Part shown: piece after piece, positions 14,780-45,570 of the stretch | Layout: each line of letters begins with the position of its first letter | Position numbering within the stretch: position 1 is the first letter of the stretch | Assembly: GCA_030765145.1 (NCBI GenBank) | Contig: JAVCDA010000010.1 | Coordinates: forward strand, 119,344-183,343 | Direction: 5' to 3' | Source of the DNA: Candidatus Saelkia tenebricola | GTDB taxonomy: Bacteria; Omnitrophota; Gorgyraeia; Kaelpiales; Kaelpiaceae | Length of the DNA: 64,000 nucleotides | The notes under the pieces: generated by a model | What the model was told of the DNA's origin: nothing | Databases searched by the model: none | What the model saw: the letters and a program-made list of their open reading frames with translations, nothing else | Made by a program: the position numbers and the translations under genes

Positions 14780-15985
14780 CTACACCATAGCATGCGTAAA
14801 AATATGTTGAATAACAAGGCTGACGGCACCTAAAGCAACCGCATTCTCTCCCAATTGCGTAGGAACAATGCGTACCTGATGACCGATTTCCTCAAATGTC
14901 TTGTCTCTAACAACCCTTTTGATCTCATCCAATAACACCGAACCTGCTCTTTCTATCCCACCGCCAATTACCACAACCTCGGGATTAAGCATCTGAATAA
15001 GATAGGCAATCCTAATACCCAATTCTTCCCCAGATTTTTTAACAAGTTCTATTGCAAGAGTATCTCCTTCCCTGGCTGCCTCAACTACAGATTTAAAATC
15101 TATTTTTCCCGCATCACCTCCGCAAAGTTCTAATATTTTAGAGTCAACGCCTTCTGTTATCACTGCTTTTTGTGCTTTTTCTTTCAATCCTAAATCTGCC
15201 TGCCAGCGGTCAAGGCCTTTAAAATTTTGTTTTTCCTGATCTGTTAAACCCGGCAAGCCTAACTCACCAGAACATCCTGTTGCACCGGAATAAATCTGAC
15301 CATTAATTATAATACCGCAACCGACTCCGGAGTACATAAAAACAAGGTTTTTCACTTCACTTTCAAGCTCAAACTCCCTCTCTCCAAAAGCTGCAACAGT
15401 AGCATCGTTTTCTACATACACAGGCATATTAAATTTTTGCTCTAACATATTTTTCAAGGTTGAGATGTAAATACTACCCATTTGTTCCGGCCAGCGAATA
15501 GTGCCTCCTTTTCTATCCACAATACCAGGAATACCGATACCAATACCTTTAATTTGACCTTCATCCAATTCTGATTTTTTAATAAGCTCCTCCACAATGT
15601 CTGTCAGAGCATCAATTAAAAACCCTTCCGCCCCTCCTTCTGGTCTGGGTTTTTTAATCTCCACAAGAACATTAGCCTTGAGATCCGTTATAATCCCAAT
15701 AATATTAACTAAGTCCAGCCCAACACCAACAATATAAGCAGCCTTAGGGTTAAGCTCTAAAACCACAGGACGCCTACCACCGGTAGAAACATCCAAACCG
15801 CCCTCTATTACCATACCTTTTTGAATATAATTATTTACATAATTAGAAACAGTAACGATGTTCAGCTCTGTTTCCTTTGAAATCTCAGTCCTGGTAATAG
15901 GTCCTTTTCTGCGAATTAAATCTAAAATTGAAAAATTCTTTCTCTCTCTATCCGCTAATACTTCCCCCATTGCCTCTACCATCAC
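14780..15985 (-). CDS. ROK family transcriptional regulator (N-terminal wHTH plus ROK sugar-kinase-like domain); zinc motif apparently degenerate
   Basis: HTH region ILDLIRRKGPITRTEISKETELNIVTVSNYV. Glycine-rich ROK sugar-kinase-like core. Only GCSGELG is present where CxCGxxGCxE is expected. Confidence 0.8.
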   Translation of the reverse strand: MMVEAMGEVLADRERKNFSILDLIRRKGPITRTEISKETELNIVTVSNYVNNYIQKGMVIEGGLDVSTGGRRPVVLELNPKAAYIVGVGLDLVNIIGIITDLKANVLVEIKKPRPEGGAEGFLIDALTDIVEELIKKSELDEGQIKGIGIGIPGIVDRKGGTIRWPEQMGSIYISTLKNMLEQKFNMPVYVENDATVAAFGEREFELESEVKNLVFMYSGVGCGIIINGQIYSGATGCSGELGLPGLTDQEKQNFKGLDRWQADLGLKEKAQKAVITEGVDSKILELCGGDAGKIDFKSVVEAAREGDTLAIELVKKSGEELGIRIAYLIQMLNPEVVVIGGGIERAGSVLLDEIKRVVRDKTFEEIGHQVRIVPTQLGENAVALGAVSLVIQHIFTHAMV

Positions 15986-17448: not shown

Positions 17449-18655
17449 CTAATCAGATAACATAACTGAATCATTTTCGGCAATCTGCATCTTAGGTAAA
17501 CTAAGTAGAATACTGGCTGCAGAGGTAACCTCTCTGACATCAATGACTTGAAGCTTAGCGATCAATGTGTTGCCTCGGTATATGGAAAATCCCATACCAA
17601 TTTGCACCCCATCTCTTCTGCCAATATCGATGATTATAAAACCTTCCTCTACATTAACAAAGACAACTCTTCCTTTAAGTAGCTCGTCTTTAATTTCTAT
17701 TCTGGGTAATTCTACAGCTTCGCCTTCAGTATCGTAATTTAGTTTTTTTATCTTTTCCAATGCCATCTCAAGATCCTGTTTTAATTTTGTAACCTCTAAC
17801 ACTTCGTCTTCCAAAACTCGATTAATATATCCAATCCTTTGATTGAATATTTCTTTTTCTTTTTTCTCTTTTTCGACATTCTGTTCTAACTGTGTAATTC
17901 TTTCGCTTATTTCCTTTTTTCTGTCCTGCGCCTGTGCAACCTTCATCTGAAGCGTATTTTTATCTCTTTGCATTTCTTCCACCTGCTTTATATATGAAAA
18001 CTTCTCTTTCTTCTCCTGCTCCAAAGATGCGCTTAAGGAAGACACTATCTTTTTAGTATCCTGAAACTTATTTTCTAAATTTTCTTTTTTATCCAATAGA
18101 TCATTTACAATATTATTTAAATTTTCTTTCTCCTTCTCAAACCTTGAAATCTCGCTATCTTTTTTCTCTAAAAGTCTTTCCAAACTACTAAGCCTTAATT
18201 CTAGATTGGATTTCTCCCGCAACAAATTTGACCAGAAACTGTCATCACCTGTGTTATTGTATTTTATATTCTCTTGGCTTGTAAAACTTGCTTTGACATC
18301 ATTCTTCTCCCGTACTAATCTAGCAACACTTTCCCGTAACCGCATATTTTCATCAGCCAGCTCCTTGAAGTTGTTTTCAGAAATAAGTTTTTCCTCCTCC
18401 ACTTTCGACAGATGTGTTTGATACTTATTAAGATTGGCCTGTATTTTTTCAATCTCTGACTTAAACTTGTCGAGATCAAACTCCAAGTCTCTATTTGTTT
18501 GATACCAAAGCACTTTTTCTTCTGTGTATCTGGAATAAATTTTTCTATTCTCTAACCCAAGCCAAACGGCAGAAATAACAGACACGCTTAAGAGCGTACC
18601 GCATAAAGAATAAATTACTGTTTTTACTGAGTCCGACATTTTCATATTGTTCTTG
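17449..18655 (-). CDS. membrane-anchored coiled-coil protein with a C-terminal small beta-rich module; last gene of the RND efflux operon
   Basis: Start taken at MKMSDSV, giving a 14-nt overlap with the upstream RND gene; the ORF-track start at 18792 lies inside that gene. One N-terminal TM helix, then about 280 aa of heptad-rich Glu/Lys sequence. The C-terminal GRVVFVNVEEGFIIIDIGRRDGVQIGMGFSIYRG block resembles the C-terminus of the OMF. Confidence 0.6.
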
Positions 18656-21600
18656 GTTTTGATATCCGCAAAATTTTTGTTACAACATATCGTACGTCTT
18701 CCATTATTATATACACACAGGGAATAACTAAAAGGGTTAAAATTGTTGAAACGCTCATCCCTCCAATAACAGTCTTTGCCAAAGGCGACCATAAATTGGC
18801 AGATTCGCTCCTGTCCACCGCCATGGGGATTAAACTACAAATTGTAGTTAACGATGTCATAAATATCGGTCTTATCCTGCTTTCGGCTCCTAAGAGCACT
18901 GCTTTCCTTAATTCCATCCCTTCTATTCTTAAAAGATTTATGTGATCCACCATAACTATAGCGTTATTAACAACAATACCTCCCAGCATTAACATGCCCA
19001 TCAACGCACCAATATTAATCGATGTACCAGTATAGTAGAGCGTAGGGATTACACCTATCGCCGCCAAGGGAACTGTAGTCATGATGATAAGGGGCTGAAT
19101 ATATGATTCGAAGAGAGACGCTAAAACCAAGAAAATCAGAATTAAAGCTACCCAAACTGCAAAGTTCAATTGCTTGTTATTCTCTTCCATCAATTCATAA
19201 TCTCCGCTAAAGCGATGTGAGTAATCATCCGGCATTTTAAAATCGCGAAGCGCTTCTTTGGATATTTCAATTGCCTTATCTAAAGAAAGAGCACCCCTAT
19301 TAGCGCTAACCTGAACCATTCTGGATTTATTCTTATGCCAAATCTCGCTAGGCGCAATATCAAATTTAAGATCTGCGATTTGCTTGAGAGGAACCTGAAT
19401 TCCGTTGCTGTTTACAAAAGTAAGGTTCTTTAAGTCTTTAAAACTATCTCGGCTTTCTTCTTCCATCCTCACCACTATCTCTACCTCTTTAGTCTTTGTA
19501 TGAAAAAAGGAGGCCCGCAAACCTCTTATTTTTCCATGCAACTGGTAGGAGATATCCTGGATAGTCAGCCCGTAAGTGCTTGCCTTATCTTGATCTATCA
19601 AAACACGAATCTCAGGCCTACCTTCTCTCATCCTTATCTTCTGATCCGTAATGCCTTCAACCGTACTTAATTTCTGCGCTATGCCCATGGCTATCTGCTT
19701 TAAAACATCATAATCATAACCATTTATATCTATAAAAATCTCGCTACTACCTACCTCCTGAGGCAATTCAAAATAAATAAAAGCGTCAAACTGTTTTGCT
19801 ATCTCATCCATCTTAGGGCGTAATTCCGTTATAATATCATCCGTCATCCGATACCTTTGAGAGAGAGGTTTTAGTTTTACATATACTTTCGAAGACCATC
19901 TTTCTATGCGAGAAGAAACAGTTTTAATCTCAGGAACTTCTCTCAAAATGCGCTCTACCATCGCAACAGCCTTATCAGACATCTCAAGGCGAGCACCCGT
20001 AGGCAATTCTACATGAGCGGTAAACTTGTTAAGTTCGGTAATGCCAATAAATTCCTTCCCTATTTGATTCCATAATGGCAACACAATTAAAAACACCGCT
20101 ACCATAAAAAACAAAAACTGATACCTTAATCGTAAAAAGCCACCCAATAGTTTTCTGTAAAATCTTCTGCTTTTTCTCACCTTGTCTTTACGCTTATTGA
20201 TAAATGGAATACCTCGACCAAGCTCCACCATAGATGAGGCTAAAGGCACCAGCGTTAACGCAACAAATAAAGATGCCAGCAAAGAATATACTACAGTCCA
20301 AGCCAAACCGCTATAAAGAATACGCATCTGTTTGCCTACAAACATAATTGGTAAAAATGCAACTACAGATGTAATGGTAGAAGCAACAATTGCAAGACTA
20401 ACTTCCTGCGCTCCATTTAAAGCTGCTAAACGCTTGTTAGCACCTGCCTCCTTTTTTTTAAAAATATTTTCTAATACAACGATTGAAGAATCCACCAACA
20501 TTCCTATCCCAAGTGCAAGCCCTGAGAGAGTCATAATATTTAAAGTCAAACCCTGCATAAACATTATTGTAAACGTTGCCATAACAGAAATTGGAATCGA
20601 AAGTGCAATAATAAAAGTCGGCGGCATATCGTGTAAAAATAACAGCAACACTATTACTGCCAGTGCACTGCCAAACATCAGAGATTTTCGCACAGTATCT
20701 ATGGCTTCTTGAACATACTCCGCCTGCTGGAAAGTAGGCCTGATGATCACGTCTTGAGGGATGATTTTTCTTATTTCCTCAAGTTCTTTGACTATCAACT
20801 TATTAACTTTGATAGTATTAGCCGTGGATTCTTTTTGAATATAAATGGAGACTACCGGACGAGCATCTACCCTTGATAAATCCATCGGGTCCAAAAATGA
20901 ATCCTTTATCTGAGCTACATCTTGAAGGCGTATCACAGAGCCCTGGGGTGTGAAACCCACTCCGATTCCTTTGATATCTTCTATTGTATTGAACTGCCCT
21001 AACAGCCTTATTAAGTACTCAATGCGTTTGCTTTCCAAATCACCGACTAAAATATCCAAATTGTTAGCTCCGACCATATCAATTAACTGCCCCAAAGATA
21101 TGTTGTAGGCTCTTAATGTTGATTCTTCTGTTTCTACTAAAATCTTTCGCTCTCTACCACCTGCAACCTCAATATTTGCTACCCCCTCCAGTCTTTGAAA
21201 CCTTGACTTAACTTTTTCGTCAACAATTCTGCGTAACATCTCCGGAGTATATTTTTCTCCGGTCACAGCAAGTATAACAATCGGAACATCAGTCTGCTGA
21301 TACCGAGCAATAACGGGCTTTTCAATTTCTTTGGGTAATTTATCTTTGACCCTGCCAAATTTTTCTCTCACCTCCAAAGAAGCAAAATCCATATTGGTCC
21401 CCGGCTCAAACTTTAAAATTACCCGCGATTCACCCTCTTCGGATATTGCAATCAATTCTTTCAGATTACTAACATCGCTCACCGCTTCTTCAACCGGCTT
21501 TGTGACCAAGCGTTCAACATCCGGAGATGGTATCCCACCTCTAATCCGTATAATAATACTAATGGTGTCATAGCTGTAATTGGGCATCAACTCTACTGGT

Positions 21601-21695
21601 AATCGAACTAAAGCAATATACCCGATAAGAACAATGCCTAAAAAAATCATTGCCATTGTAATCGGCCGTTTAATCGCAACGCTTGCTAATCCCAT
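18642..21695 (-). CDS. efflux RND transporter permease subunit (AcrB/HAE family), second of a tandem pair
   Basis: 1017 aa, 12-TM RND architecture with large periplasmic loops; conserved RND motifs. Confidence 0.9.
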   Translation of the reverse strand: MGLASVAIKRPITMAMIFLGIVLIGYIALVRLPVELMPNYSYDTISIIIRIRGGIPSPDVERLVTKPVEEAVSDVSNLKELIAISEEGESRVILKFEPGTNMDFASLEVREKFGRVKDKLPKEIEKPVIARYQQTDVPIVILAVTGEKYTPEMLRRIVDEKVKSRFQRLEGVANIEVAGGRERKILVETEESTLRAYNISLGQLIDMVGANNLDILVGDLESKRIEYLIRLLGQFNTIEDIKGIGVGFTPQGSVIRLQDVAQIKDSFLDPMDLSRVDARPVVSIYIQKESTANTIKVNKLIVKELEEIRKIIPQDVIIRPTFQQAEYVQEAIDTVRKSLMFGSALAVIVLLLFLHDMPPTFIIALSIPISVMATFTIMFMQGLTLNIMTLSGLALGIGMLVDSSIVVLENIFKKKEAGANKRLAALNGAQEVSLAIVASTITSVVAFLPIMFVGKQMRILYSGLAWTVVYSLLASLFVALTLVPLASSMVELGRGIPFINKRKDKVRKSRRFYRKLLGGFLRLRYQFLFFMVAVFLIVLPLWNQIGKEFIGITELNKFTAHVELPTGARLEMSDKAVAMVERILREVPEIKTVSSRIERWSSKVYVKLKPLSQRYRMTDDIITELRPKMDEIAKQFDAFIYFELPQEVGSSEIFIDINGYDYDVLKQIAMGIAQKLSTVEGITDQKIRMREGRPEIRVLIDQDKASTYGLTIQDISYQLHGKIRGLRASFFHTKTKEVEIVVRMEEESRDSFKDLKNLTFVNSNGIQVPLKQIADLKFDIAPSEIWHKNKSRMVQVSANRGALSLDKAIEISKEALRDFKMPDDYSHRFSGDYELMEENNKQLNFAVWVALILIFLVLASLFESYIQPLIIMTTVPLAAIGVIPTLYYTGTSINIGALMGMLMLGGIVVNNAIVMVDHINLLRIEGMELRKAVLLGAESRIRPIFMTSLTTICSLIPMAVDRSESANLWSPLAKTVIGGMSVSTILTLLVIPCVYIIMEDVRYVVTKILRISKPRTI

Positions 21696-21698
21696 AAA

Positions 21699-24600
21699 TT
21701 ATCCCTTAAATTCATACCACCTACCCGGACCATTAGGCCCTTTAGCAATTATTATTTCTTTGTCCACCAGGTCTTTAAGGTCTCTCGCCGCGGTGGCAAC
21801 TGAAATTTTAAAAATATCCTGACATTGCCGCCGCATAATTCTACCGTGTTGCTTTATATACAATAAAACTTCTTTTTGTCGTTTGTTTAATTCCGGGAAC
21901 TTCTTGAAAACATCCCTCTCTAACACTTTTTCCTCTATTTCAGGTTCAGATAATATAATTTTTTCTTCCATTATTTCTTGGACAACTTCTATTGTTTTTG
22001 CTTTCTCAAGAGGAGATTCTTTTTCGATCATTTTTACCGCAACTAAATATAGCGCCGGGACAACAAACAATGTAAGAATCGTTGAAGAAGATAACCCTCC
22101 AATAACAGCAATCGCCATAGATGCTCTTAGCTCTGCTCCTTCACTTAAACCTAAAGCTAGAGGGATTAGGCCTAACGTAGTAGTGAGTGCAGTCATTAAT
22201 ATTGGCCTTAGCCTATGTTGGCACGCTTCTATTGCCGCATCATATGGATTAACACCTTCTGCCCTTAGTCCATTAATACGGTCTAGCAATACGATGCCGT
22301 TATTAACAACAATACCTCCTAAAATTATCACACCTAAAAATACCACTATATTTAAAGTGGTGCCTGTAAGTAGAAGGGCTATACTTATTCCGATTAATGA
22401 AAGTGGCACTGAAAACATTATTACGAAAGGCTGCCAAAGAGACTCAAACTGTGCCGCCATAATCATATATACCAAAACAATAGATAGTATAAGAGCAAAC
22501 ATTAAATTCTTGAACGATTCTGCCATTTCTTTTTTCTCTCCGCTCATTTTAACCATATAATCTTTTGGCACTTCAATTGCCTCAATAACATTTTCTATAT
22601 CCTTGATAATTTCACTGAACCTTCTTTTATAAACATTGGCGGAAACCACAACAGTCCTTTCTTGGTCTAAACGTTTAATTTGGCTGGGCCCAATTCCTTT
22701 TGCAAGATAAGCAACATCGGCTAGAGAGACTTCCACCCCTAAGGGAGAATGAATCAAAATATTTCTGACTTTAGCTATATTTTCTTTATCTTCTTCCCGA
22801 AGTCTTGTTCTGATATCATATTCCCTGCCTTCTTCTTTATATTTTGACGCTACATACCCTTTAATTGCAGCCTGAGTAGCCAAAGAAATACTGTTAACCG
22901 AGAGATTATATAGTGCAGCTTTTTTCTTCATTACATTCACTTTTATTTCAGGCTGAGCCGGAGCAAGGTCACTCTTAATATCGTATAAGCCGGAAATATG
23001 TTCAAACCGAGCGATTAAATTCTCAGAAAGAGTTCTTAAGGTGTCTATCTCCTTCCCTTTTAGCTCTATGGTAACAGGCTTACCTCCCTGCATAGCAGCC
23101 TTAAAAATTGTCTCCTGTAAAATATATTCTATTTCCGCCTTTTCTAAATCAGTACCTATTAAATCTGTTTGCAATTGCTGAACCACTCCCTGACTCTTTC
23201 TGTATTCTGCGTCTCTTTTAGACATCTTTTTAAGATTGACGACAATTTGTGCTTGATGTGAGCCCATAGTTGCCACAGCTCCGCCATACGCTTTTTCCTT
23301 ACTAGAACCAATTGTCACACCTACACCTTTTATGTCTGGATAACCGAGTAAAATACGCTCTATTTTTTTAACAACTCCATCTGTAACTTCAATCCTGCTA
23401 CCTGTAGGCATATCTATCTTAATCAAAAATTCACGCTGATCTACTTTGGGCATTAATTCTCTATCAACCGTATTCAGCAAGTAAAAAGCACCCATTGTTA
23501 TCAAGATGATAATTGCAAAATAAAAATATTTGACTTTAAGAAAAGCTTTCAGGCTCCGAGCATATGAAGATTGCAATATCCGCATCCAAGCCCATTCTTT
23601 TCGAACAGTCTTTTCGGTTTTAACTTTAGCTGCAAGTCTTGGGATTAAAGATAACGCTACAGCCAATGATGCTAAAAGCGCAAACGTTACGGTAAAAGCT
23701 AATTCTCTGAAAAGTTGCCCCGCAACTCCTTCTACAAACATAAGCGGCAGGAACACAGCAATGGTTGTAAAGGTAGAAGCTGAAATTGCAGTGGCTACCT
23801 CACTAGCTCCAGAAGATGCCGAAAGAGATGGAGATTCACCCATCTGTCTATGGCGAAAAATATTTTCAATAACAACAATTGCATTATCAACCAACATTCC
23901 TACTCCAAGCGCAAGCCCCCCTAAAGACATTATGTTTACCGAAAGACCTCTGAAATACATCAAGCTAAAAGTAAGCAGAATTGAAATAGGAATTGAAAGC
24001 GCAACTATAACAGAGCTGTAAATGTTCATAAGAAACAAGAACAAGACTATAAATGCCAATACTCCGCCTTGAAAAGCTGCGTCTCTCACCCCATTTATAG
24101 AATCTTCAATAAATTTGGACTGATCATACACAATCTCTATTTCTGCTCTACCTTTAATCCTTTCTCTAATTTCATCCAATTTTTTATTAACATCTTTAAC
24201 GACTTTTATTATATTGGCTCCTGCCTGCCTCTGAATTCTAATTGAAATATTTTCTCTTCCGTTATACCGCGATATGTTAGTTAAATCTTTCAACGAATCA
24301 ACAACTTTTCCTAAATCCTGAACATAAATAATTCTTTTATCAGATGATTCTCCTTTCATCTGCCTAATATATTCTTCATATTGCGTTTTAGGTGGGTCAA
24401 CTTCCTGCACATCAACAACTACATTTCTTATTTCTTCGACAGCCTCAAATTCTCCCATCGTTCTAATCATGTATTCATAGAACGTTTCTTTTATTGTCCC
24501 GGCAGGAAAAGTAAAATTAGTTTGCTTAATTGCTTCGGCAACTTTTAAAATCGGAATTTTATTGGCATATAATTTACCTTGATCCAATTCCACTAAAATT

Positions 24601-25145
24601 TCTCTTTCTCTTCCCCCCACAATACCGGCCGAAGCTATGCCTTCGATTTTTTCAAGCTCATCTTTGATTTCTTTTCTGCACAATTCCCGCAATTGCCTGG
24701 ATGGTATATCACCTTTTACAGAAAGAATCGCAACCGGAATTTCAAAAGGATTAAACTTCATAACAATCGGATCTTCAGAGCCTAAAGGCAATCTCTCTTT
24801 AACGAGATCAATCTTTTCTCTTACACCAAGTGAGGCAAAATCCATATTGGTGCCCCAATCGAAATCTAAGATTATAAGCGATAAACCTTCTTTAGAAAGA
24901 GAGGAAATTTTTTTAAGCCCGTTTACCGTTCCTACCGCTTCTTCCATTATTTTTGTTATTAACGTTTCTACTTCCTCAGGAGAAGCATTCTCATAAGTCG
25001 TAACAATCGTAATTTGCGGATAGGAAATCGAAGGGTACAATTCCTGGGAGAGCTTCATCCAAGAGATAACACCTAAAAGCCCTATTCCTAAATAGAACAT
25101 TGTAATTGTTACTGGTCTCCTAATAGAAAATTCAGGCAGGTGCAT
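21699..25145 (-). CDS. efflux RND transporter permease subunit with about 105-aa C-terminal cytoplasmic extension resembling a winged-helix DNA-binding domain
   Basis: 1148 aa. RND core through about aa 1040. The tail ...KRQKEVLLYIKQHGRIMRRQCQDIFKISVATAARDLKDLVDKEIIIAKGPNGPGRWYEF has an HTH-like pattern seen in Fic/RecG-type wHTH tails. Confidence 0.85.
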   Translation of the reverse strand: MHLPEFSIRRPVTITMFYLGIGLLGVISWMKLSQELYPSISYPQITIVTTYENASPEEVETLITKIMEEAVGTVNGLKKISSLSKEGLSLIILDFDWGTNMDFASLGVREKIDLVKERLPLGSEDPIVMKFNPFEIPVAILSVKGDIPSRQLRELCRKEIKDELEKIEGIASAGIVGGREREILVELDQGKLYANKIPILKVAEAIKQTNFTFPAGTIKETFYEYMIRTMGEFEAVEEIRNVVVDVQEVDPPKTQYEEYIRQMKGESSDKRIIYVQDLGKVVDSLKDLTNISRYNGRENISIRIQRQAGANIIKVVKDVNKKLDEIRERIKGRAEIEIVYDQSKFIEDSINGVRDAAFQGGVLAFIVLFLFLMNIYSSVIVALSIPISILLTFSLMYFRGLSVNIMSLGGLALGVGMLVDNAIVVIENIFRHRQMGESPSLSASSGASEVATAISASTFTTIAVFLPLMFVEGVAGQLFRELAFTVTFALLASLAVALSLIPRLAAKVKTEKTVRKEWAWMRILQSSYARSLKAFLKVKYFYFAIIILITMGAFYLLNTVDRELMPKVDQREFLIKIDMPTGSRIEVTDGVVKKIERILLGYPDIKGVGVTIGSSKEKAYGGAVATMGSHQAQIVVNLKKMSKRDAEYRKSQGVVQQLQTDLIGTDLEKAEIEYILQETIFKAAMQGGKPVTIELKGKEIDTLRTLSENLIARFEHISGLYDIKSDLAPAQPEIKVNVMKKKAALYNLSVNSISLATQAAIKGYVASKYKEEGREYDIRTRLREEDKENIAKVRNILIHSPLGVEVSLADVAYLAKGIGPSQIKRLDQERTVVVSANVYKRRFSEIIKDIENVIEAIEVPKDYMVKMSGEKKEMAESFKNLMFALILSIVLVYMIMAAQFESLWQPFVIMFSVPLSLIGISIALLLTGTTLNIVVFLGVIILGGIVVNNGIVLLDRINGLRAEGVNPYDAAIEACQHRLRPILMTALTTTLGLIPLALGLSEGAELRASMAIAVIGGLSSSTILTLFVVPALYLVAVKMIEKESPLEKAKTIEVVQEIMEEKIILSEPEIEEKVLERDVFKKFPELNKRQKEVLLYIKQHGRIMRRQCQDIFKISVATAARDLKDLVDKEIIIAKGPNGPGRWYEFKG

Positions 25146-25173: not shown

Positions 25174-26424
25174 TTAAAATAATTTTTCCTGTGTTTCTAT
25201 GATTTTTATCCCGGTACCGGCTGAAAATCTTTTCATACCCGGAGTCTCTATAACAATCAGAGCGCCTTCTGTAAGCCCCTTTTTAATAACAGCATAATCT
25301 GTCGTAATATACTCTACGGTAACTGGAGCATATTTAATCTTTTCTTCTTCTATCATCGCAGCGTAATAAGCACCTTGTTGAATTGATACAGATGAACTCG
25401 GTACAACCAGAGCGTCTTTCTTTCTGAATACAGCAACATCTACCCGGGCAAACATTCCGGGTTTTAACAGTTTGCCTGGGTCTAAAACTCTGACCCTGAT
25501 GTTTAATGTGCGTGTTCTTTCATCAATTGCAGGGAAAACAGTTTCCACATAACCAAAAAACACTCTTGTGGGATAGGTGTCCACCTTGACTTTTACTTTC
25601 TGCCCGGATTTAATTTTAAACACATCTTTTTCTATGACCCCTATTTCTACAAATGTATTGGCGGCATCTAACAAAGTAAAAATAATGTCATTAGGGGTTA
25701 TAAATTCGCCGACATCTTTCTCTTTTTTGTTGATAATACCTGCTTGAGGGGCTTTCATATCAAGTTTTTCTAATTTGACCTTGCTTAGTTGAAGTTCTTT
25801 TTTGCTTATATCTATTTTTGCCTTGGATACTTCAAGCTCCGCCTGCAATTGATCCAGCCTGGCTTTTATAATCGCCCCAATTTCATAAAGCCTTTTGACT
25901 ACTTGATATCTTTTAAGAGCCGCTTTATATTCAGCCTCTGTAGCATTCAATTTTGCCTGAGCCCATTGAATTTCAAGCTTCACATCTTTTGAATCAAGGG
26001 TTGCTAACAAATCTTGTTTTTTGACTTTATCTCCTTCTTTAATTTTGATATTTTTTATTACCCCATTGACTTCAAATCTAAGCTCTATCTCCGGAATATT
26101 CCTAACAGTCCCTACCGCAGGAAGTTCATCGGTAAAATCCGTGAATGCAAGCTTATAAGCCTTAATGGGGATGCTTTGCTCCGGTTGCTGCGGCAGAAGA
26201 GATATCGGCGCTTTGGGTTCGGATTTTTCCTCTTCTTTTTTAAAAGGAGTTTGCTTTTTATCTGCCACTTTAGATGAAGCAGTCAAATCCGAGGAAGGAG
26301 CAAAAAGCCTACGCACACCGACAAACAGTAAAATTACAATAATAATGTTCACTGCAATGATAACTAAACTACGCAGGGTAAATATTTTTTTAATAACGGA
26401 TAAAATGTTGGTATTTTCTTTCAT
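25174..26424 (-). CDS. efflux RND transporter periplasmic adaptor subunit (HlyD/MFP family)
   Basis: N-terminal TM anchor, coiled-coil hairpin, lipoyl and beta-barrel segments. 4-nt overlap with the OMF gene. Confidence 0.85.
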   Translation of the reverse strand: MKENTNILSVIKKIFTLRSLVIIAVNIIIVILLFVGVRRLFAPSSDLTASSKVADKKQTPFKKEEEKSEPKAPISLLPQQPEQSIPIKAYKLAFTDFTDELPAVGTVRNIPEIELRFEVNGVIKNIKIKEGDKVKKQDLLATLDSKDVKLEIQWAQAKLNATEAEYKAALKRYQVVKRLYEIGAIIKARLDQLQAELEVSKAKIDISKKELQLSKVKLEKLDMKAPQAGIINKKEKDVGEFITPNDIIFTLLDAANTFVEIGVIEKDVFKIKSGQKVKVKVDTYPTRVFFGYVETVFPAIDERTRTLNIRVRVLDPGKLLKPGMFARVDVAVFRKKDALVVPSSSVSIQQGAYYAAMIEEEKIKYAPVTVEYITTDYAVIKKGLTEGALIVIETPGMKRFSAGTGIKIIETQEKLF

Positions 26425-28667
26425 TGTAATATCTCCACGTTATCTCCTATTCTCAATCCTTTAAAATCCCTGTCTATGCCTTTCTCCAGATAACAGGCTG
26501 CTGTGTTATTATCAATTCTAGCAGGAACAAGCAAAGCATATTCTTGGCCATTTCTATAAACCATGACTTTGCTGTTGGAACTTAACCCCTTGCCTTGACC
26601 AATATTGAGTATTGCCATTCCATACTGATTGTTAACTCCAATAATCCTTCCTTGAATACCCGTAGGAATAATTTGGGTTATTTCTTTCTTAAACTCAGGG
26701 AGCTTGAAAGGAGTGTAGCTTACACTCGTTGCAGGATGATTGCTGAAGTTTTCCCAAGCAGCAATAACAGGTTTTTCTGTCACAAGGCTCATATAGCTTT
26801 CCACTCCGCAAGCTTTGGAGATACTGGAAAGAGCAATGTAATAGCCCAGCAAAGCCCTGTTATAATTTACCTCTTCGTTGGCATAGTCTAAATACCCCTG
26901 CAAAAGCTCTGTGATGTTTGCCTCTTCTACTTTCATTCTACCTTCAGTAACTTTTAATCTTCTACTATGGAACTCCAATTTTTGAAGAGATGTTTCAATC
27001 TGAAAAAGAGAGGAGACATAATTTGCATATGATCTCTCAACTTCGGAAATAATAGATTCTTCCGTTTCCACTTCTTCGTTGACTGCTTTCAAAAATTCTA
27101 CGCGTGCTGTTTTTTCATCGGAAGCCATACTCAACCTATCAACAATAGACCATTCCAAAGATTTGGTAAAAGATTTTGTCGTGTCTTCTGTGCTAAACAT
27201 TCCCACAGGTCTATTCTGCTGCACCACCGAAGCATCCAAAGAGCTGTTGCCGATAGGTCTAGACACTTTTAATCCTAGATACCAGCTATCACGGAATTCT
27301 TCAGGTTCTGATTCATAATCTTCAGCTATTTTGCCGACTTTACCGGTCAAACTAAGATGAAATCTGTTTTTTGATTTTGCAATCTGTTCGTTCAAATTGT
27401 TGAATTGTGTTACTAATTGACGTATCTTAAGTTCCGACCTCTGTGTTTTAGCAATTCTTAAGGCCGTCTCTAATCCTATATTAACTTTTCCGAAAGGCAA
27501 CCAATTGACCAATGTAATCTCCTCGTCGCCAGGTAAATTTAACGTCTGCCTGAACGCTAACTCGGATAGAGAAAGTTCTTTCTGAGTCGAAACAAAAAGA
27601 AACTTTATCTGTTGATAAGACGAAGATAGCTGTTTATATTCAACCTCTGTAATCAAACCTTGTTGATATAGCAATTTGCCCATTGCTAATAATTTATTAG
27701 CTTCAGCCAATAGTTTATTAAAAGTGTCCCAGTTCATTCTGTTCAAAACCACATTGTAAAAATTTCTTTTAAGTTCCAGGGTATAATCTGTAGAAAGTTG
27801 CTGACGTTCCATCAAAGCAAGTTCCATATTAATCTTAGCCTGCTCCAGTTTATATTGCAGTTCGCCGCCATATGAAAGAGGTTGTTCAAATTCAATTTCA
27901 GCTGATTTAGATATAATATTTACCTTACCTGTTGTTTCACCTACCGTATCAACTAATCGAACAACTGCTGTGGGGAAAAACTGTCTTCTTGCTTCCTGAG
28001 CTTTCATTTGTGCAAGTTCATATTGTTCGGTTGCAATTTGTAAAGGCCTATAATTTTCAATTCCTATATCAATCCACCGCTGCCATCCCAGTATAGCCTG
28101 TTGCCATTCTTCTTCATCTTGAGGACCTATTTTTTGCTCAGGAGTAAAACTAAATGATTTAGGTAATTCTGTTTCTTCTTCTTTACTATTTTGACTAAAA
28201 ACCACTTCTTTAATTTCGGGAAAAATTATCTTAATAGTATTATCATCAGAGATAATATTATGTTTGAACTCCTTGCTGCCCTTAATAACAATCCCATCAA
28301 CCTTTCCTGCTTCACTATCTCCAGGTTCATAGCCCGGATAAAATTTTACAGTTGCATATTGTAATCCAAACGAGTTCATCTCTAACTTGAATTTTTCCAT
28401 ACAAAGTAAATTACTCCCAATAAGATCCACAAAAAGAGTTTGCTTGTCCTCCATCCAGTAAGTGTGATATAAAGGGCTGCTATTAAATGATATGGTTATT
28501 GCAAACTTTTTATCTAAAAACCCTTTTTGGATATCTTTAAGAATAACCGTATCATTAACATGATACGGTTGGGAATAAGCAAATGATACGGTTACTAAAA
28601 ACCAGATTACGAATGATACGGTTGTTAATTTCTGATTTTTTTTCTCTATCATTCTTAACATAACCAT
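26421..28667 (-). CDS. TolC-like outer membrane efflux factor with N-terminal AMIN-like extension and extra C-terminal beta module
   Basis: The central 430 aa show the two-repeat OEP/TolC pattern. The N-terminal 200 aa include an AMIN-like segment (FAITISFNSSPLYHTYWMEDKQTLFVDL). The C-terminal 110 aa (GRIIGVNNQYGMAILNIGQG...VMVYRNG) are similar to the C-terminus of the coiled-coil protein. Confidence 0.8.
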   Translation of the reverse strand: MVMLRMIEKKNQKLTTVSFVIWFLVTVSFAYSQPYHVNDTVILKDIQKGFLDKKFAITISFNSSPLYHTYWMEDKQTLFVDLIGSNLLCMEKFKLEMNSFGLQYATVKFYPGYEPGDSEAGKVDGIVIKGSKEFKHNIISDDNTIKIIFPEIKEVVFSQNSKEEETELPKSFSFTPEQKIGPQDEEEWQQAILGWQRWIDIGIENYRPLQIATEQYELAQMKAQEARRQFFPTAVVRLVDTVGETTGKVNIISKSAEIEFEQPLSYGGELQYKLEQAKINMELALMERQQLSTDYTLELKRNFYNVVLNRMNWDTFNKLLAEANKLLAMGKLLYQQGLITEVEYKQLSSSYQQIKFLFVSTQKELSLSELAFRQTLNLPGDEEITLVNWLPFGKVNIGLETALRIAKTQRSELKIRQLVTQFNNLNEQIAKSKNRFHLSLTGKVGKIAEDYESEPEEFRDSWYLGLKVSRPIGNSSLDASVVQQNRPVGMFSTEDTTKSFTKSLEWSIVDRLSMASDEKTARVEFLKAVNEEVETEESIISEVERSYANYVSSLFQIETSLQKLEFHSRRLKVTEGRMKVEEANITELLQGYLDYANEEVNYNRALLGYYIALSSISKACGVESYMSLVTEKPVIAAWENFSNHPATSVSYTPFKLPEFKKEITQIIPTGIQGRIIGVNNQYGMAILNIGQGKGLSSNSKVMVYRNGQEYALLVPARIDNNTAACYLEKGIDRDFKGLRIGDNVEILQ

Positions 28668-28683
28668 ATCATAACCGTATCAT
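28545..28683. repeat. cluster of six copies of the 11-bp motif AACCGTATCAT / ATGATACGGTT (both orientations) spanning the OMF start codon and first 40 codons
   Basis: Copies at 28545-55, 28560-70, 28583-93, 28613-23, 28662-72 (variant AACCATATCAT) and 28673-83. The first two form a 26-bp palindrome. Confidence 0.85.
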
Positions 28684-28786
28684 AAAGAATTTCTCAAAAT
28701 TCTGGTCTTATGTCAAGAGAAAAATTCAGTCTTATGCTTATATCATAAACGTTATAAGCACAAGGAAGGGATATTTCGTACGAACC

Positions 28787-40669: not shown

Positions 40670-41776
40670 CTAAACCAATTGCATTGGTAAAACAAGATAG
40701 ATATATTTTGAGTCCAATCTAATAATTCCCGGCTTATCCGCTCCATTCAACTCAAAACAAACTTCTTGAGTTTCAATGTTTTTCAAAACATCCAACAAAT
40801 ACTGAGGATTAAAGCCAACCACCATTTCATCTCCATCGTAACTAGCCTCTATTTCTTCTCTCCCTTCCCCTAAATCCGGGGTTATTTTAGAAATAACAAT
40901 TTTATTTTTGTAGAACTCCAATTTGATGGCTATTGAATCACTTGTTGTCATTAAGCTTGCTCTTTTTATTGCTCTGGAGAAATCTTCTGTTTGTATTCTT
41001 AATTTATTCTCGCTTTCTTTAGGGATAACTTCTTCATAATTGGGAAAATCTCCTTCTATCAAACGAGTGATCAATTCAGTGTTGTTGCAATGAAAAGAAA
41101 TTTGATTGTTTTTTTGAGAAATATTTATCGTCACTACCTCATCTGCTCCATCCATTATTTTTAAGAGCTCCATAACAGCTTTTTGAGGAATGATATATTT
41201 CCCATCCCAACCAACTTCTATATCTTCCTGGTACATTGCTAACCTTCTTCCATCGCTTGCAACTAATCTTAACCTCTTCTCTTGAAAATCAAACAATATC
41301 CCATTCAATACGTATCTTGTTTCTTCTTTAGAACATGCAAAACATGTTTTTGATATCATTTTTTTTAGAATGTTTATCTTTACTTTAAATCCTTTACCTT
41401 CTATCTTTGGAATTTCAGGATATTCTTCTGCAGAAAAACCCAGCAATTTAAAATAACATTTTTCACCACGAATGATAACACCTGCATTCTTTGTTTCTTC
41501 TATTAAAATCTCTTGATCTGGAATTTCTTTTAAAATATCATAAATTTTTTTACCAGGTGTAGTAATTTTTCCTATCTGAATTGCTTTAGTGGGGATTTTT
41601 TTTCTAATACATATCTCTAAATCTGTGGCTGTTATGCTTAAATGATCTTTCTCCGCCTTTATTAATAAGTTAGACAAAATTGGTAATGTTGAACGCGAAG
41701 GAACAACTGATATTATGTCTCCTAAGGCTTTAACAATACATTCTTTTTCTACAGTAAATTTCATTTTTTCCTCCAT
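40670..41776 (-). CDS. dnaN: DNA polymerase III beta sliding clamp
   Basis: 368 aa, three-domain clamp pattern, position between dnaA and gyrB. Confidence 0.9.
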   Translation of the reverse strand: MEEKMKFTVEKECIVKALGDIISVVPSRSTLPILSNLLIKAEKDHLSITATDLEICIRKKIPTKAIQIGKITTPGKKIYDILKEIPDQEILIEETKNAGVIIRGEKCYFKLLGFSAEEYPEIPKIEGKGFKVKINILKKMISKTCFACSKEETRYVLNGILFDFQEKRLRLVASDGRRLAMYQEDIEVGWDGKYIIPQKAVMELLKIMDGADEVVTINISQKNNQISFHCNNTELITRLIEGDFPNYEEVIPKESENKLRIQTEDFSRAIKRASLMTTSDSIAIKLEFYKNKIVISKITPDLGEGREEIEASYDGDEMVVGFNPQYLLDVLKNIETQEVCFELNGADKPGIIRLDSKYIYLVLPMQLV

Positions 41777-42014
41777 TAGTTGTGTTGTTTTCTAATAAGT
41801 ATTTGTTTTATAGTATGTATTAGTAGTGTTTGTGTAAAAGTGGATAATAATATAAACATATATGTATCAATGGTTTATTGATAAAAGTGTATCTGTGTAA
41901 AATGTTGTTAAAAAGGTGGTTCTTTTTTTTATTGATGTATTTATCCACATATCCACATTTTATCCACAAGCAATCTATGTGTTTTTAAGGATCTTTTCCT
42001 CAAGTTTATCCACA
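41777..42014. other. candidate oriC: AT-rich unwinding region plus DnaA-box cluster
   Basis: Perfect TTATCCACA at 41941-49, 41960-68 and 42006-14. ATATCCACA at 41949-57. Inverted TTATCCACT at 41839-47. An AT-rich stretch at 41777-41940. Confidence 0.7.
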
Positions 42015-43324
42015 ATCTGTTTTAATTTATTTTCTTTTTCCCTTTCTATTTTTTGAACAGCATGTATGACCGTGGTATGATCTTTACCGCCAAAAGCACT
42101 TCCAATATCATTTAAGGAAGAATCCGTGTGTTTACGTATCAAATATATAGCCAATTGTCTGGGTAAAGTAACCGACTGTTTGCGAGATTTACTTTTAAGA
42201 TCTGCAAGTGAAATATTAAATAATTTTGCTACTTTTTCTTGGATATAAGGGATACTTACCCTACTGCTTTCTTCCTGCACCATATCACGTAAAACTTTTT
42301 CAACTAAAGGCAAGTCAATGCGCTCTTCAATTAAGGTTGCATGTGCGACAACTCTCAAGAGAGCACCTTCTAGCTCACGGATATTGGAAGAAATTTTTTC
42401 CGCAATATAGGAAAGCACGTCATTAGCAACTATAAGCTTAAATTTAAAAACTTTTTTTTGAAGAATAGCCAAGCGGGTTTCATAATCAGGTTTTTGCACA
42501 TCAACAACTAATCCCCAATGAAACCGAGAAACCAGACGTTCTTCTAAATCTGGGATTTCCTTAGGTGATCGGTCGCTGGAAATCACAATTTGTTTGTGAA
42601 AATCATAAAGAGCGTTAAAAGTATGGAAAAACTCTTCTTGCATACCTGCTTTCCCTGCTAGAAATTGTATATCATCGATTAATAAAAGATCGACGTTGCG
42701 ATATCGTTCCCTAAAACGAGCAGTACTGCGTGTTTGAATAGAGTGGACTAGTTGATTGGTAAACTCTTCGCTGGAAATATAATGCACTTTAAAGCGAGGA
42801 AAACGGTTAATAATCTCATGTCCGATGGCATGCAAAAGATGGGTTTTACCCAAACCAACCCCGCCGTATATAAAAAGCGGGTTATATGCTTTTGCCGGCG
42901 AAATAGTAATGGCAAAAGTTGCGGCATGGGCTAATTTATTGCACTCTCCCACAATAAATTCTTCAAAAGTATTTTGCGGATTTAACCGCTCTAAAACATG
43001 TTTAGAAATGACCTGTGTTTCTTTGTGTGTTGTCTTTATTTGTGGTGCAGTAATTTCAGAAGGGATTTTTGCTACGGTTAGTTTTATTTGGAATTCTTCC
43101 CCTGTCACGTCTTTTAAAAACAGCAAGATTTTATCCATATAACGTTCGCGAATCCAATTGCTGAAGAAAATATTAGGCACTGTAAATTCTAAAGTGTTAC
43201 CGGAGACTTCATGAACCTCAAGGGGTTCGATCCAGAATTTATATGTATGACTACCGAACTCGGTAATTAAACGTTCTTTGATTTCTTCCCAACAACTAAG
43301 CGTTTTTTTCTGCATAGGCGTCAA
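41975..43324 (-). CDS. dnaA: chromosomal replication initiator protein
   Basis: AAA+ Walker A GLGKTHLLHAIG and a C-terminal DnaA-box-binding HTH. Confidence 0.95.
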   Translation of the reverse strand: MTPMQKKTLSCWEEIKERLITEFGSHTYKFWIEPLEVHEVSGNTLEFTVPNIFFSNWIRERYMDKILLFLKDVTGEEFQIKLTVAKIPSEITAPQIKTTHKETQVISKHVLERLNPQNTFEEFIVGECNKLAHAATFAITISPAKAYNPLFIYGGVGLGKTHLLHAIGHEIINRFPRFKVHYISSEEFTNQLVHSIQTRSTARFRERYRNVDLLLIDDIQFLAGKAGMQEEFFHTFNALYDFHKQIVISSDRSPKEIPDLEERLVSRFHWGLVVDVQKPDYETRLAILQKKVFKFKLIVANDVLSYIAEKISSNIRELEGALLRVVAHATLIEERIDLPLVEKVLRDMVQEESSRVSIPYIQEKVAKLFNISLADLKSKSRKQSVTLPRQLAIYLIRKHTDSSLNDIGSAFGGKDHTTVIHAVQKIEREKENKLKQIVDKLEEKILKNT

Positions 43325-43360
43325 TTATAACAATCTACATATATAGTTTCAACATTTAAG

Positions 43361-43389
43361 TTGATTTAATACTGAATATTCACTATAAT
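43361..43389 (+). promoter_or_regulatory. sigma70-type promoter for rpmH (TTGATT-17 nt-TATAAT)
   Basis: -35 TTGATT at 43361-66 and -10 TATAAT at 43384-89, about 28 nt upstream of the rpmH GTG, followed by a GGAGGTG SD. Confidence 0.6.
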
Positions 43390-43416
43390 GGCCCGAATAA
43401 TAGGAGGTGATTACAG

Positions 43417-43554
43417 GTGAAAAAGAATTTAAAGCCGGTATCAAATTTAAAAAGGAAACGAAAACATGGTTTTTTAAAAAGGAATGATACCAAAGCAGGT
43501 CAACAGATTTTGACTCAGAGGAGAAAAAAAGGAAGACATAAAATTGCAGTCTGA
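43417..43554 (+). CDS. rpmH: 50S ribosomal protein L34
   Basis: GTG start. 45 aa, [23 protein letters not shown]..., matching the L34 consensus. Missed by the ORF track because it is under 60 aa. Confidence 0.85.
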
Positions 43555-44091: not shown

Positions 44092-45570
44092 ATGATGGAG
44101 AAAAGAATTCTTATTGCAACGGGTCTTGCTTTTTTAGTTTTGTTAATGTATCAGCCGTATTTAAAAAAGTTGGGTGTGCAGCCACAAAGAAAAACAGTTG
44201 TAACGCAAGCCAGTAAAAAGCCCAATGATACGGTTGTGCCGTATGATACGGTTGATATTGAGACTGTTCAGACAGATGATACGGTTGCTGATACGGTTTT
44301 AGAGAATGATTTACTCAAGTTAACTGTTAATGAAAGAACAGGCACAGTAAAAGAAATCTATTTTTGGGATCATGGCACAAGCGCCATTCTTTACTCATTG
44401 CAAAATAAAGGCTTAGGATTATTTGCGCCAACCGTATCAACCGTATCATTTCAAAGTCGATTAGGTTTCAGTGCAAATGATATGGTTCTGGAAGGCCAGA
44501 GAGTAAAACGGTCGTATAAACTGGAGGAACATATCCTAACTACTGTTTTTGAAGGAGAAAAAGAAATTAGTATTTTTATTCCGACTAAATACGATGTTTC
44601 TCCCAGGGAAGCACGGTATGTAAGAATGGTGATTAAAAACACAGATGGTCTAAGCTATGATAAACCTTCCAAACTTATGAAGAATGGAGGAACATTACAG
44701 AACGTGGACTGGTTTGCACTGTCCTTTAGGTATCATTCTTTACTGTTTGATCCAGACAATATTGTAGACTTAGGAATAATTCCATCTTTAAGTAGAGATG
44801 GTTTTATTATCAAAATCAAGTTAGATGAGGCGCGTTTTAGCATAGCAACTTATTTAGGTCCCAATTCTGCCAATATTTTGGAATCCTATAATCAGAGTTG
44901 GCTTGGCGTGTTAAATTACGGGACATTGAACAATGTGGTTAAAACACTCCTAGTATTCTTCCATAAAATAACTCACAACTATGGCAGTGCTATTTTACTA
45001 CTGGCGATGCTGTTAAATTTGATTTTCTCTCCACTTACGCTTAAGTCTCAACGTAGTATGAAAGGCATGCAGAAGCTGCAACCGGAGATACAAGCTTTAA
45101 AAGAGCAATATAAAGATAATCCACAAGCTGTTAACAAGGAAATGCTACAGCTTTATAAAAAGCATAAAGTTAATCCGATGGGAGGATGCTTGCCGATGCT
45201 ATTACAAATCCCGGTATTTATCGCCCTCTATAACACGCTGATGAGAAGCTATGAGCTCAAAAATGCTACTTTTTTGTGGATTAAAGATCTTTCAGCACCA
45301 GACAGACTTGTTATGCTTGGCAAGGCCTTGCCGTTGATAGGCAATGAAATTAACCTTTTACCTTTGTTGATGGCGGGACTCATGTTTGCACAGCAAAAGC
45401 TTTCTCCCGCAGCCAAGATGCCGGGAGCAGGAGCGCAGAATCCCAATATGATGCTTTGGCTTATGCCGATATTTATGGGAGCAATATTTTATAAGTTTCC
45501 AGCAGGGCTTGTTCTTTACTGGTTTACTAATTCTCTGTTTATGCTGGTGCTGCAAATGGCTCGAAAGTAA
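44092..45570 (+). CDS. yidC: membrane protein insertase YidC
   Basis: N-terminal TM anchor, periplasmic P1 domain, conserved C-terminal 5-TM insertase core (GGCLPMLLQIPVFIALY...). Confidence 0.95.
   Translation: MMEKRILIATGLAFLVLLMYQPYLKKLGVQPQRKTVVTQASKKPNDTVVPYDTVDIETVQTDDTVADTVLENDLLKLTVNERTGTVKEIYFWDHGTSAILYSLQNKGLGLFAPTVSTVSFQSRLGFSANDMVLEGQRVKRSYKLEEHILTTVFEGEKEISIFIPTKYDVSPREARYVRMVIKNTDGLSYDKPSKLMKNGGTLQNVDWFALSFRYHSLLFDPDNIVDLGIIPSLSRDGFIIKIKLDEARFSIATYLGPNSANILESYNQSWLGVLNYGTLNNVVKTLLVFFHKITHNYGSAILLLAMLLNLIFSPLTLKSQRSMKGMQKLQPEIQALKEQYKDNPQAVNKEMLQLYKKHKVNPMGGCLPMLLQIPVFIALYNTLMRSYELKNATFLWIKDLSAPDRLVMLGKALPLIGNEINLLPLLMAGLMFAQQKLSPAAKMPGAGAQNPNMMLWLMPIFMGAIFYKFPAGLVLYWFTNSLFMLVLQMARK
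44225..44487. repeat. second cluster of seven copies of the ATGATACGGTT / AACCGTATCAT motif inside the yidC 5' coding region
   Basis: Copies at 44225-35, 44243-53, 44276-86, 44289-98 (10/11), 44430-40 (10/11), 44439-49 and 44477-87 (variant ATGATATGGTT). Confidence 0.85.

Follow-up and report, generated by a model that had tools for sequence, protein, structure and literature searches.

A winged helix fused to an RND efflux permease of Omnitrophota, and operator-like arrays at the head of its operon

Resistance-nodulation-division (RND) pumps are among the best-studied bacterial transporters, and the regulation described for them runs via separate soluble repressors (TetR, MarR) or two-component systems. 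The described pumps that most resemble the one considered here are MdtABC of E. coli and MuxABC-OpmB of Pseudomonas, in which an adaptor gene is likewise followed by two paralogous RND permease genes. Regulators that work from the membrane are known from other settings: in ToxR, CadC and TcpP a flexible cytoplasmic linker ties a winged-helix DNA-binding domain to the inner membrane, and the domain works on promoters close by while it stays tethered; in PutA, PtsG-Mlc, MalK-MalT and LysP-CadC a membrane-associated metabolic or transport protein either is a transcription factor or directly controls one. Here, we describe a 64,000-nucleotide stretch from Candidatus Saelkia tenebricola, a member of the phylum Omnitrophota (contig JAVCDA010000010.1, positions 119,344 to 183,343 of the forward strand; "the window" below means this whole stretch), which carries an RND efflux operon whose first permease, RND1, ends in a DeoR-type winged helix-turn-helix (wHTH) domain. 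Full-text literature searches returned no description of an RND permease-HTH fusion and no study of Omnitrophota efflux systems.

An initial annotation, made by a model from the DNA letters, had read RND1 as an RND permease, and Pfam bears this out: ACR_tran (PF00873) matches the protein at 798 bits (cut-off 28; E 1.3e-239) and nearly end to end, with RND1 residues 5-1035 lying on profile positions 3-1019. By this match and by its tripartite-pump operon partners RND1 is a member of the RND permease superfamily, and the protein is identical to the NCBI entry of the 'Candidatus Saelkia tenebricola' metagenome-assembled genome. NCBIfam places it in multidrug RND permease subfamilies (RND_permease_2, 690 bits). 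Its best equivalog model is MdtB/MuxB (NF007798; 430.9 bits against a cut-off of 1584), and that of the second permease, RND2, is MdtC (NF007905; 409.7 bits against 1774); the two proteins prefer the MdtB and MdtC models but fall far below the equivalog cut-offs and are not orthologues of MdtB and MdtC. By analogy with such paired permeases, RND1 and RND2 may form a heterotrimer. Read by eye, transmembrane helix (TM) 4 of RND1 carries VDN and TM10 carries VNN, where AcrB has VDD and AKN. Neither MdtB nor MdtC has a cytoplasmic DNA-binding tail. The last transmembrane helix of RND1 ends ...VVPALYLVAVKMI, and about 108 more residues follow it (window 21702-22025), reading QKEVLLYIKQHGRIMRRQCQDIFKISVATAARDLKDLVDKEIII...GRWYEF. 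The initial annotation had put this extension at about 105 amino acids (aa) and quoted the identical string, and the interval it gave, 21699-22030, corresponds to the tail plus the stop codon. Since both termini of RND permeases are cytoplasmic, as established for AcrB, the tail of RND1 is cytoplasmic and faces the nucleoid.

The tail consists of a linker and a compact domain. The linker, rich in glutamate and lysine in RND1, is unconserved and ranges from 5 to 156 aa (median 69) across 116 homologues, in which it is composed of 20% Pro, 14% Glu and 13% Lys. In an AlphaFold2 model of TM12, linker and wHTH (all of our models cover protein fragments only), the predicted local distance difference test (pLDDT) exceeds 90 for the helix and for the wHTH and lies below 50 over some 26 residues past the membrane, the picture of a disordered tether. 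An HTH-like pattern had been suspected in the tail, and a domain search confirms it, with HTH_DeoR (PF08220) matching the tail alone at 26.0 bits and the whole protein at 21.6 bits (cut-off 21); HTH_24 and MarR match the tail alone more weakly. With a threshold of E<=0.001 the same family is matched by 43 of the 44 orthologous tails, the best of them at 1.2e-10, and an AlphaFold2 model built on the alignment of the 44 tails has a mean pLDDT of 92 and three helices followed by a two-stranded wing (H10-22, H27-34, H38-50, E54-57, E65-68). Searched against the PDB with Foldseek, the tail finds the wHTHs of MarR, AdcR, Fic2 and DIP2311 at TM-scores of 0.73-0.80, and its matches include the MarR-operator complex 5h3r, the ROK repressor-operator complex 5f7q and Z-alpha domains. 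That the tail is a winged helix is thus confirmed by profile match and structure prediction. The domain is basic (net charge +3 to +11 across homologues, median +6) and carries the motif LNxRQ...ITR...IS(V/I)(A/P)TAARDLKxL...GPxGPGRWYE. As for companion domains, RND1 shows no match to Trans_reg_C at E<=1, none to the DeoRC domain in the Pfam/NCBIfam search, and none by Pfam search to the Fic (HxFx(D/E)GNGR), AlbA_2 or HATPase_c_4 catalytic domains. Among the families compared, "RND permease" and "DeoR-like HTH domain" are the only two to which RND1 answers.

In proposed function RND1 comes nearest to ToxR/CadC-type membrane-integrated regulators and to PutA or 'trigger transporter' systems; in sequence its tail is closest to Fic and AlbA_2/HATPase_c_4 wHTHs, and its body is like the MdtB/MdtC-type pairs. 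DeoR, GlpR and SrlR repressors belong to the HTH family of the tail, PF08220, and combine an N-terminal HTH with a C-terminal DeoRC domain for sugar-phosphate binding and oligomerisation, whereas the HTH of RND1 is C-terminal and has no DeoRC partner. DeoR and GlpR act via multiple operators and DNA looping, a habit that resembles the multi-site arrays described below. ToxR, CadC and TcpP carry an N-terminal OmpR/PhoB-type wHTH, one transmembrane helix and a periplasmic sensor; the C-terminal DeoR-type wHTH of RND1 sits on a 12-TM transporter, and the resemblance is functional only. In PtsG-Mlc, MalK-MalT and LysP-CadC the regulator is a separate protein, and PutA is a peripheral enzyme that shuttles between DNA and the membrane, whereas in RND1 a domain of DNA-binding type is covalently and permanently part of an integral transporter. 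Among solved structures the tail comes closest to the C-terminal wHTH of the Coxiella Fic protein CbFic2 (8cil), first in a PDB-chain profile search (E 6e-4) and matched by Foldseek at 29-31% identity and a TM-score of 0.77-0.79. The motif S..TA.RDL..L...G...G.GR..Y.L is common to the tail and to the wHTHs of Fic proteins and AlbA_2/HATPase_c_4 proteins (the "RecG-like" and schlafen-like ones), and the best non-RND match to the tail is an AlbA_2 and HATPase_c_4 protein, so the likeness to Fic, RecG-like and schlafen-like wHTH tails that the initial annotation had sensed holds up; those domains sit on soluble enzymes, that of RND1 on a membrane transporter. CbFic2 switches its enzyme activity through DNA binding, and its wHTH is needed for dsDNA-induced dimerisation (PMC10628234).

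The fusion is far from peculiar to the window. The 120 closest homologues (49-84% identity, 1136-1271 aa, full coverage, from many independent assemblies) end in the same wHTH in 116 cases, and a back-translated pattern search over one genome per GTDB species gave 96 confirmed sites at 80 loci, most of them labelled Omnitrophota; the tail, whose absence from relatives would have pointed to a sequencing or assembly fusion, is present in them. Its consensus among the homologues is LNxRQxxLLexLKxxxkITRKEYaxxFxISvPTAARDLKeLxDKGxlxaxGPlGPGRWYEL, with a mean column identity of 65% and 13 invariant positions, including T-A-x-R-D of the recognition helix, in proteins that are overall only about 50% identical. 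Database names for the homologues are mostly "efflux RND transporter permease"; one (P0006) is listed as "DeoR family transcriptional regulator", a misnomer. A large sister group of Omnitrophota permeases lacks the tail (1018-1074 aa, 55-81% identical to the permease P0071), and neighbour-joining groups the tail-bearing permeases in a single clade next to this tail-less grade, which implies that the tail was gained once and then long retained.

A tail-only word-index search gave no match, the query being too short, and an exhaustive hidden Markov model (HMM) search with the tail was used instead. Across 1.84 billion cluster representatives it returned 189 matches below 1e-10. The top matches longer than 330 aa have an RND body upstream in all but one case, and the shorter ones resemble fragments, which rules out the tail as a tag in general use among the proteins of Omnitrophota; the window itself has a single copy. 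The lone exception, P0121, is a protein of 2918 aa with AlbA_2, HATPase_c_4 and several wHTHs. No other protein matches the tail profile as well as P0121 does (E 5e-40, over four stretches), which hints at the donor lineage of the tail. Lower in the list stand multi-wHTH helicases and Fic-sized proteins (about 366 aa) whose sole Pfam matches are HTH families.

The second element of interest is a recurring word, first noticed by reading the upstream regions of six related loci, with the consensus (A)TGATAYGGT(T). The window contains 17 matches to TGATAYRGT where 1.57 are expected, a number that none of 100 shuffles reached. Seven sites in both orientations form a candidate operator that extends over promoter and start codon into the first ~180 bp (signal-peptide-coding) of the operon's first gene, which encodes an outer-membrane efflux protein (OEP); a tandem pair with 11-bp spacing (28663-28682) lies just upstream of the start codon. 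At the 80 genome loci, about 126 of some 175 site matches fall 6-8.5 kb upstream of the tail, that is, at the operon head. A same-orientation pair at 11 bp is the commonest arrangement, and other pairs have spacings of 9-12, 15, 17 bp and more and take every orientation. The largest sub-lineage has the pair directly against the -35 element of a near-consensus promoter (TTGACA-17-TGnTATACT), with a single site at a constant distance of about 130 bp downstream, in the coding region, so that the positions relative to the start codon are [-69,-58,+66] or [-40,-29,+96]; in the lineage of the window the tandem pair lies just downstream of the promoter. Since sites within coding regions are translated in five out of six strand and phase combinations (TVS, DTV, PYH and others), the constraint acts on the DNA and not on the peptide. 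A second array of seven sites lies within the 5' third of yidC, at the same position as in yidC of two other loci (L141 and L130).

Tail and array go together. Counting OEP-first operons with the head in view, 42 of 45 tail-bearing operons have at least two sites, two have one and one has none; all five tail-less operons (L087, L209-L212) have none. In our proposal, held at a probability of roughly 0.4, RND1 autoregulates its operon through its tail, a membrane-tethered DNA-binding domain that would recognise the arrays at the operon head. The flexible linker would hold a basic DeoR-type wHTH at the cytoplasmic side of the inner membrane, from where it would bind the (A)TGATAYGGT(T) sites that lie on and around the promoter and in the opening ~180 bp of the OEP gene, and the pump would be its own transcription factor. 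DNA binding by the tail is suggested indirectly by its net charge, by the HTH_DeoR match and by the modelled likeness to DNA-bound MarR, to a ROK repressor-operator complex and to the Fic2 wHTH, and binding of these arrays in particular by their co-occurrence with the tail; the conserved position of the array at the operon head lends the idea of regulation circumstantial support, and the lack of a TetR- or MarR-type gene at the operon also speaks for it. The likeliest mode would be repression, with the start region occupied and sites ~130 bp apart bridged. Several tails, within one pump trimer or a cluster of pumps, could bind multi-site arrays multivalently, and the variable spacing and orientation of the sites would suit monomeric domains on separate flexible tethers better than a rigid dimer. 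Pump abundance would then feed back on transcription of the operon and possibly of yidC. Small cells are usually reported for Omnitrophota, and in very small cells a disordered tether of 50-150 residues could plausibly reach much of the nucleoid. If the proposal is right, transporter and transcription are physically linked in the shortest possible feedback loop, and the small class of membrane-tethered transcription factors gains a polytopic transporter, in a fusion that is conserved across Omnitrophota and comes with an operator-like array at the head of the operon encoding it. The organisms behind these sequences are uncultured, and the phylum is without genetics.

Several observations weigh against this proposal. 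A ROK-family regulator stands beside most array-bearing operons, has a recognition helix as invariant as that of the tail, and is a conventional candidate for the factor that binds the arrays. The co-occurrence of tail and array reflects at most one or two evolutionary events. A transporter, probably abundant, would be an odd choice for a factor with few target sites, and arrays of this 9-mer are also present in GC-rich bacteria that are unrelated and have no such pump nearby. The 16 operons of a second gene order (type B, below) have the same tail recognition helix and no array within ~10 kb, with the OEP head mostly outside view (as it is in the three of these loci with an OEP gene nearby); their promoters share no alternative motif by eye. 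The wHTH of CbFic2, finally, is not the sole determinant of DNA affinity in that protein (PMC10628234).

The tail might instead bind DNA elsewhere, either as a low-specificity tether between pump and nucleoid or at other sites, with the arrays serving as the operator of the ROK protein or of another factor. We regard this as somewhat unlikely. The array-less type-B operons speak for it, as does the ROK gene itself, whose helix LNIVTVSNYIN is invariant, so that conservation does not separate the two candidate binders; moreover, the invariant residues of the tail are largely a generic DeoR/Fic HTH signature, and CbFic2, the nearest solved relative, bound random-sequence dsDNA (PMC10628234). Yet none of the five tail-less operons has an array although the ROK gene is present in four of them, which argues for the tail and against ROK as the array binder; in L087, the only tail-less locus aligned, the ROK helix (INIVTISNYIN) is near-identical to that of array-bearing loci. 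Eleven array-bearing loci have no ROK gene within the sequence examined, and a motif scan of the window found no array at its ROK and SBP genes. ROK dimers, furthermore, normally need fixed palindromes, and the spacing and orientation of the array sites vary.

Less probable still, and in our judgement unlikely, is that the wHTH is a protein-protein module that docks a cytoplasmic partner such as the ROK regulator, or that aids the assembly or localisation of the two-permease pump. Precedents are easily found: PtsG sequesters Mlc, winged helices dock proteins in FeoC-FeoB and ScpB, and MmpL-type RND proteins localise via cytoplasmic C-terminal domains. The persistence of ROK as a neighbour and the presence of the tail on only one of the two permease paralogues would also fit. 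However, the DNA-contacting DeoR signature is preserved in this strongly basic domain, the ROK association extends to the tail-less clade and is hence independent of the tail, and tail-bearing operons have no conserved partner gene of their own.

Improbable, but of wider consequence, is a chromosomal role beyond the repression of one promoter, in which many membrane-anchored wHTHs on arrays in the 5' coding regions of envelope genes would pin the OEP-gene and yidC loci, and with them the origin region (yidC is 2 kb from oriC), to the inner membrane. It would amount to a sequence-specific DNA-membrane tether built into a transporter, which in ultra-small Omnitrophota cells might link transcription and translation to membrane insertion (transertion) or anchor the chromosome, and any such tether would bear on the old question of DNA-membrane attachment. 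The small remainder of the probability goes to RNA, ligand or other roles of the tail. One could see in the tail a fusion created by sequencing or assembly, or a functionless remnant in decay, given the metagenome-assembled source and one homologue, P0022, in which, at 13339-13546 of locus L088, an in-frame TAG separates the permease and linker from a 67-aa open reading frame (ORF) that is the wHTH, but this explanation is already refuted by the comparative data, namely the recurrence of the in-frame fusion in independent assemblies, the conservation of the tail above that of the proteins that carry it, and its single gain and retention. The TAG in L088 could itself reflect a sequencing error or a pseudogene, or else a natural split or readthrough.

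The features of the operon and its surroundings are collected in Table 1. Two gene orders occur. In type A, found in the window and at most loci, the order is OEP (600-850 aa), membrane-fusion protein (MFP), RND1 with the wHTH and RND2, often followed by the gene for a coiled-coil protein; in type B, found at 16 loci, it is RND1 with the wHTH, RND2 and MFP. RND2 is directly downstream of RND1 in all loci examined. Compared with MdtABC-type pumps, the operon encodes its OEP first, and with a long N-terminal extension.

Table 1. Positions of the tail-bearing permease, its operon and associated elements in the window
Feature	Position	Strand	Remarks
RND1, tail-bearing RND permease gene	21699..25145	-	1148 aa; ORF and Pfam match
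RND1 transporter body, residues 1-1040	22026..25145	-	Pfam ACR_tran, residues 5-1035
RND1 linker, residues 1041-1085	21891..22025	-	E/K-rich; low AlphaFold2 confidence
RND1 DeoR-type winged helix-turn-helix, residues 1086-1148	21702..21890	-	Pfam, AlphaFold2, Foldseek
RND2, second permease, tail-less	18642..21695	-	1017 aa; ends right after last TM helix
Membrane-fusion (periplasmic adaptor) protein	25174..26424	-	416 aa; HlyD_D23, HlyD_3
Outer-membrane efflux protein (OEP/TolC-like), first gene of operon	26421..28667	-	748 aa; PF02321
Candidate sigma-70 promoter(s) of operon	28668..28716	-	consensus only: TTGACA 28716-28711; alternative TTGAGA-18-TATGAT
Seven-site TGATAYGGT array, both orientations	28488..28682	.	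candidate operator
Membrane-anchored coiled-coil protein	17449..18645	-	~398 aa from MKMSD...; start overlaps RND2 stop
ROK-family (NagC/Mlc-like) regulator	14780..15985	-	N-terminal wHTH; recurrent operon neighbour
Second seven-site TGATAYGGT array	44226..44486	.	within 5' third of yidC (44092..45570 +)

The OEP protein of the window exceeds the typical TolC-like length by about 300 aa through an N-terminal extension with no domain match; its homologues measure 594-859 aa, one of them (L004) with a weak TonB_C match. The coiled-coil gene is translationally coupled to RND2 and kept in many type-A operons (L001-L004 and others), where its membrane-anchored product measures ~360-420 aa and combines a long SMC-like coiled coil with a small beta-rich domain at the C-terminus. 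The ROK gene often adjoins the operon, either directly upstream of the OEP gene or downstream as in the window; no TetR- or MarR-type regulator gene is found at the operon in the window or the related loci. A conserved protein of ~250 aa encoded upstream of OEP was considered as a regulator and set aside, for it has a signal peptide and no domain match and is confined to one sub-lineage; it bears no relation to the ORF of ~260 aa in type-B operons.

The tail-less operons have features of their own. Between their ROK and OEP genes they encode a very basic protein of 114-135 aa with a zinc-ribbon-like N-terminus (CxxC...CxxxC), found at L087 6166-6534, L209 6071-6478, L210 6689-7033 and L212 1435-1794. 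The gene is absent from tail-bearing operons, and its product may be a functional stand-in for the tail. Genes for giant proteins (1,600 to >12,000 aa) adjoin several RND operons (flanks of L209, L210, L212, L003 and L005), and in the tail-less clade they lie directly downstream of RND2.

In a metagenome scan for the tandem pair, the matches listed were mostly GC-rich contigs of unrelated bacteria on which palindromic arrays stand between unrelated housekeeping genes; the yidC array recurs among the matches listed, which beyond this define no regulon. Neighbouring Por_Secre_tail genes suggest that the GC-rich contigs are of FCB-group origin. On these contigs, arrays of the same TGATACGGT unit, tandem and palindromic, were seen at L099 4541-4590, L193 ~7970-8020, L126 7300-7370 and L154 ~5950-5990; they may constitute a repeat family of independent origin, or else an operator of wide distribution.

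The yidC array of the window lies 2 kb from dnaA, and TGATAYGGT was therefore considered as a local DnaA box; this was ruled out, since classical TTATCCACA boxes cluster at 41839-42014. The surrounding region (40670-43420) is that of the chromosomal origin of replication, with dnaN (40670..41776 -) and dnaA (41975..43324 -) divergent from rpmH-rnpA-yidD-yidC; both the sign of the GC skew and the orientation of the genes switch there, the former near 42-43 kb.

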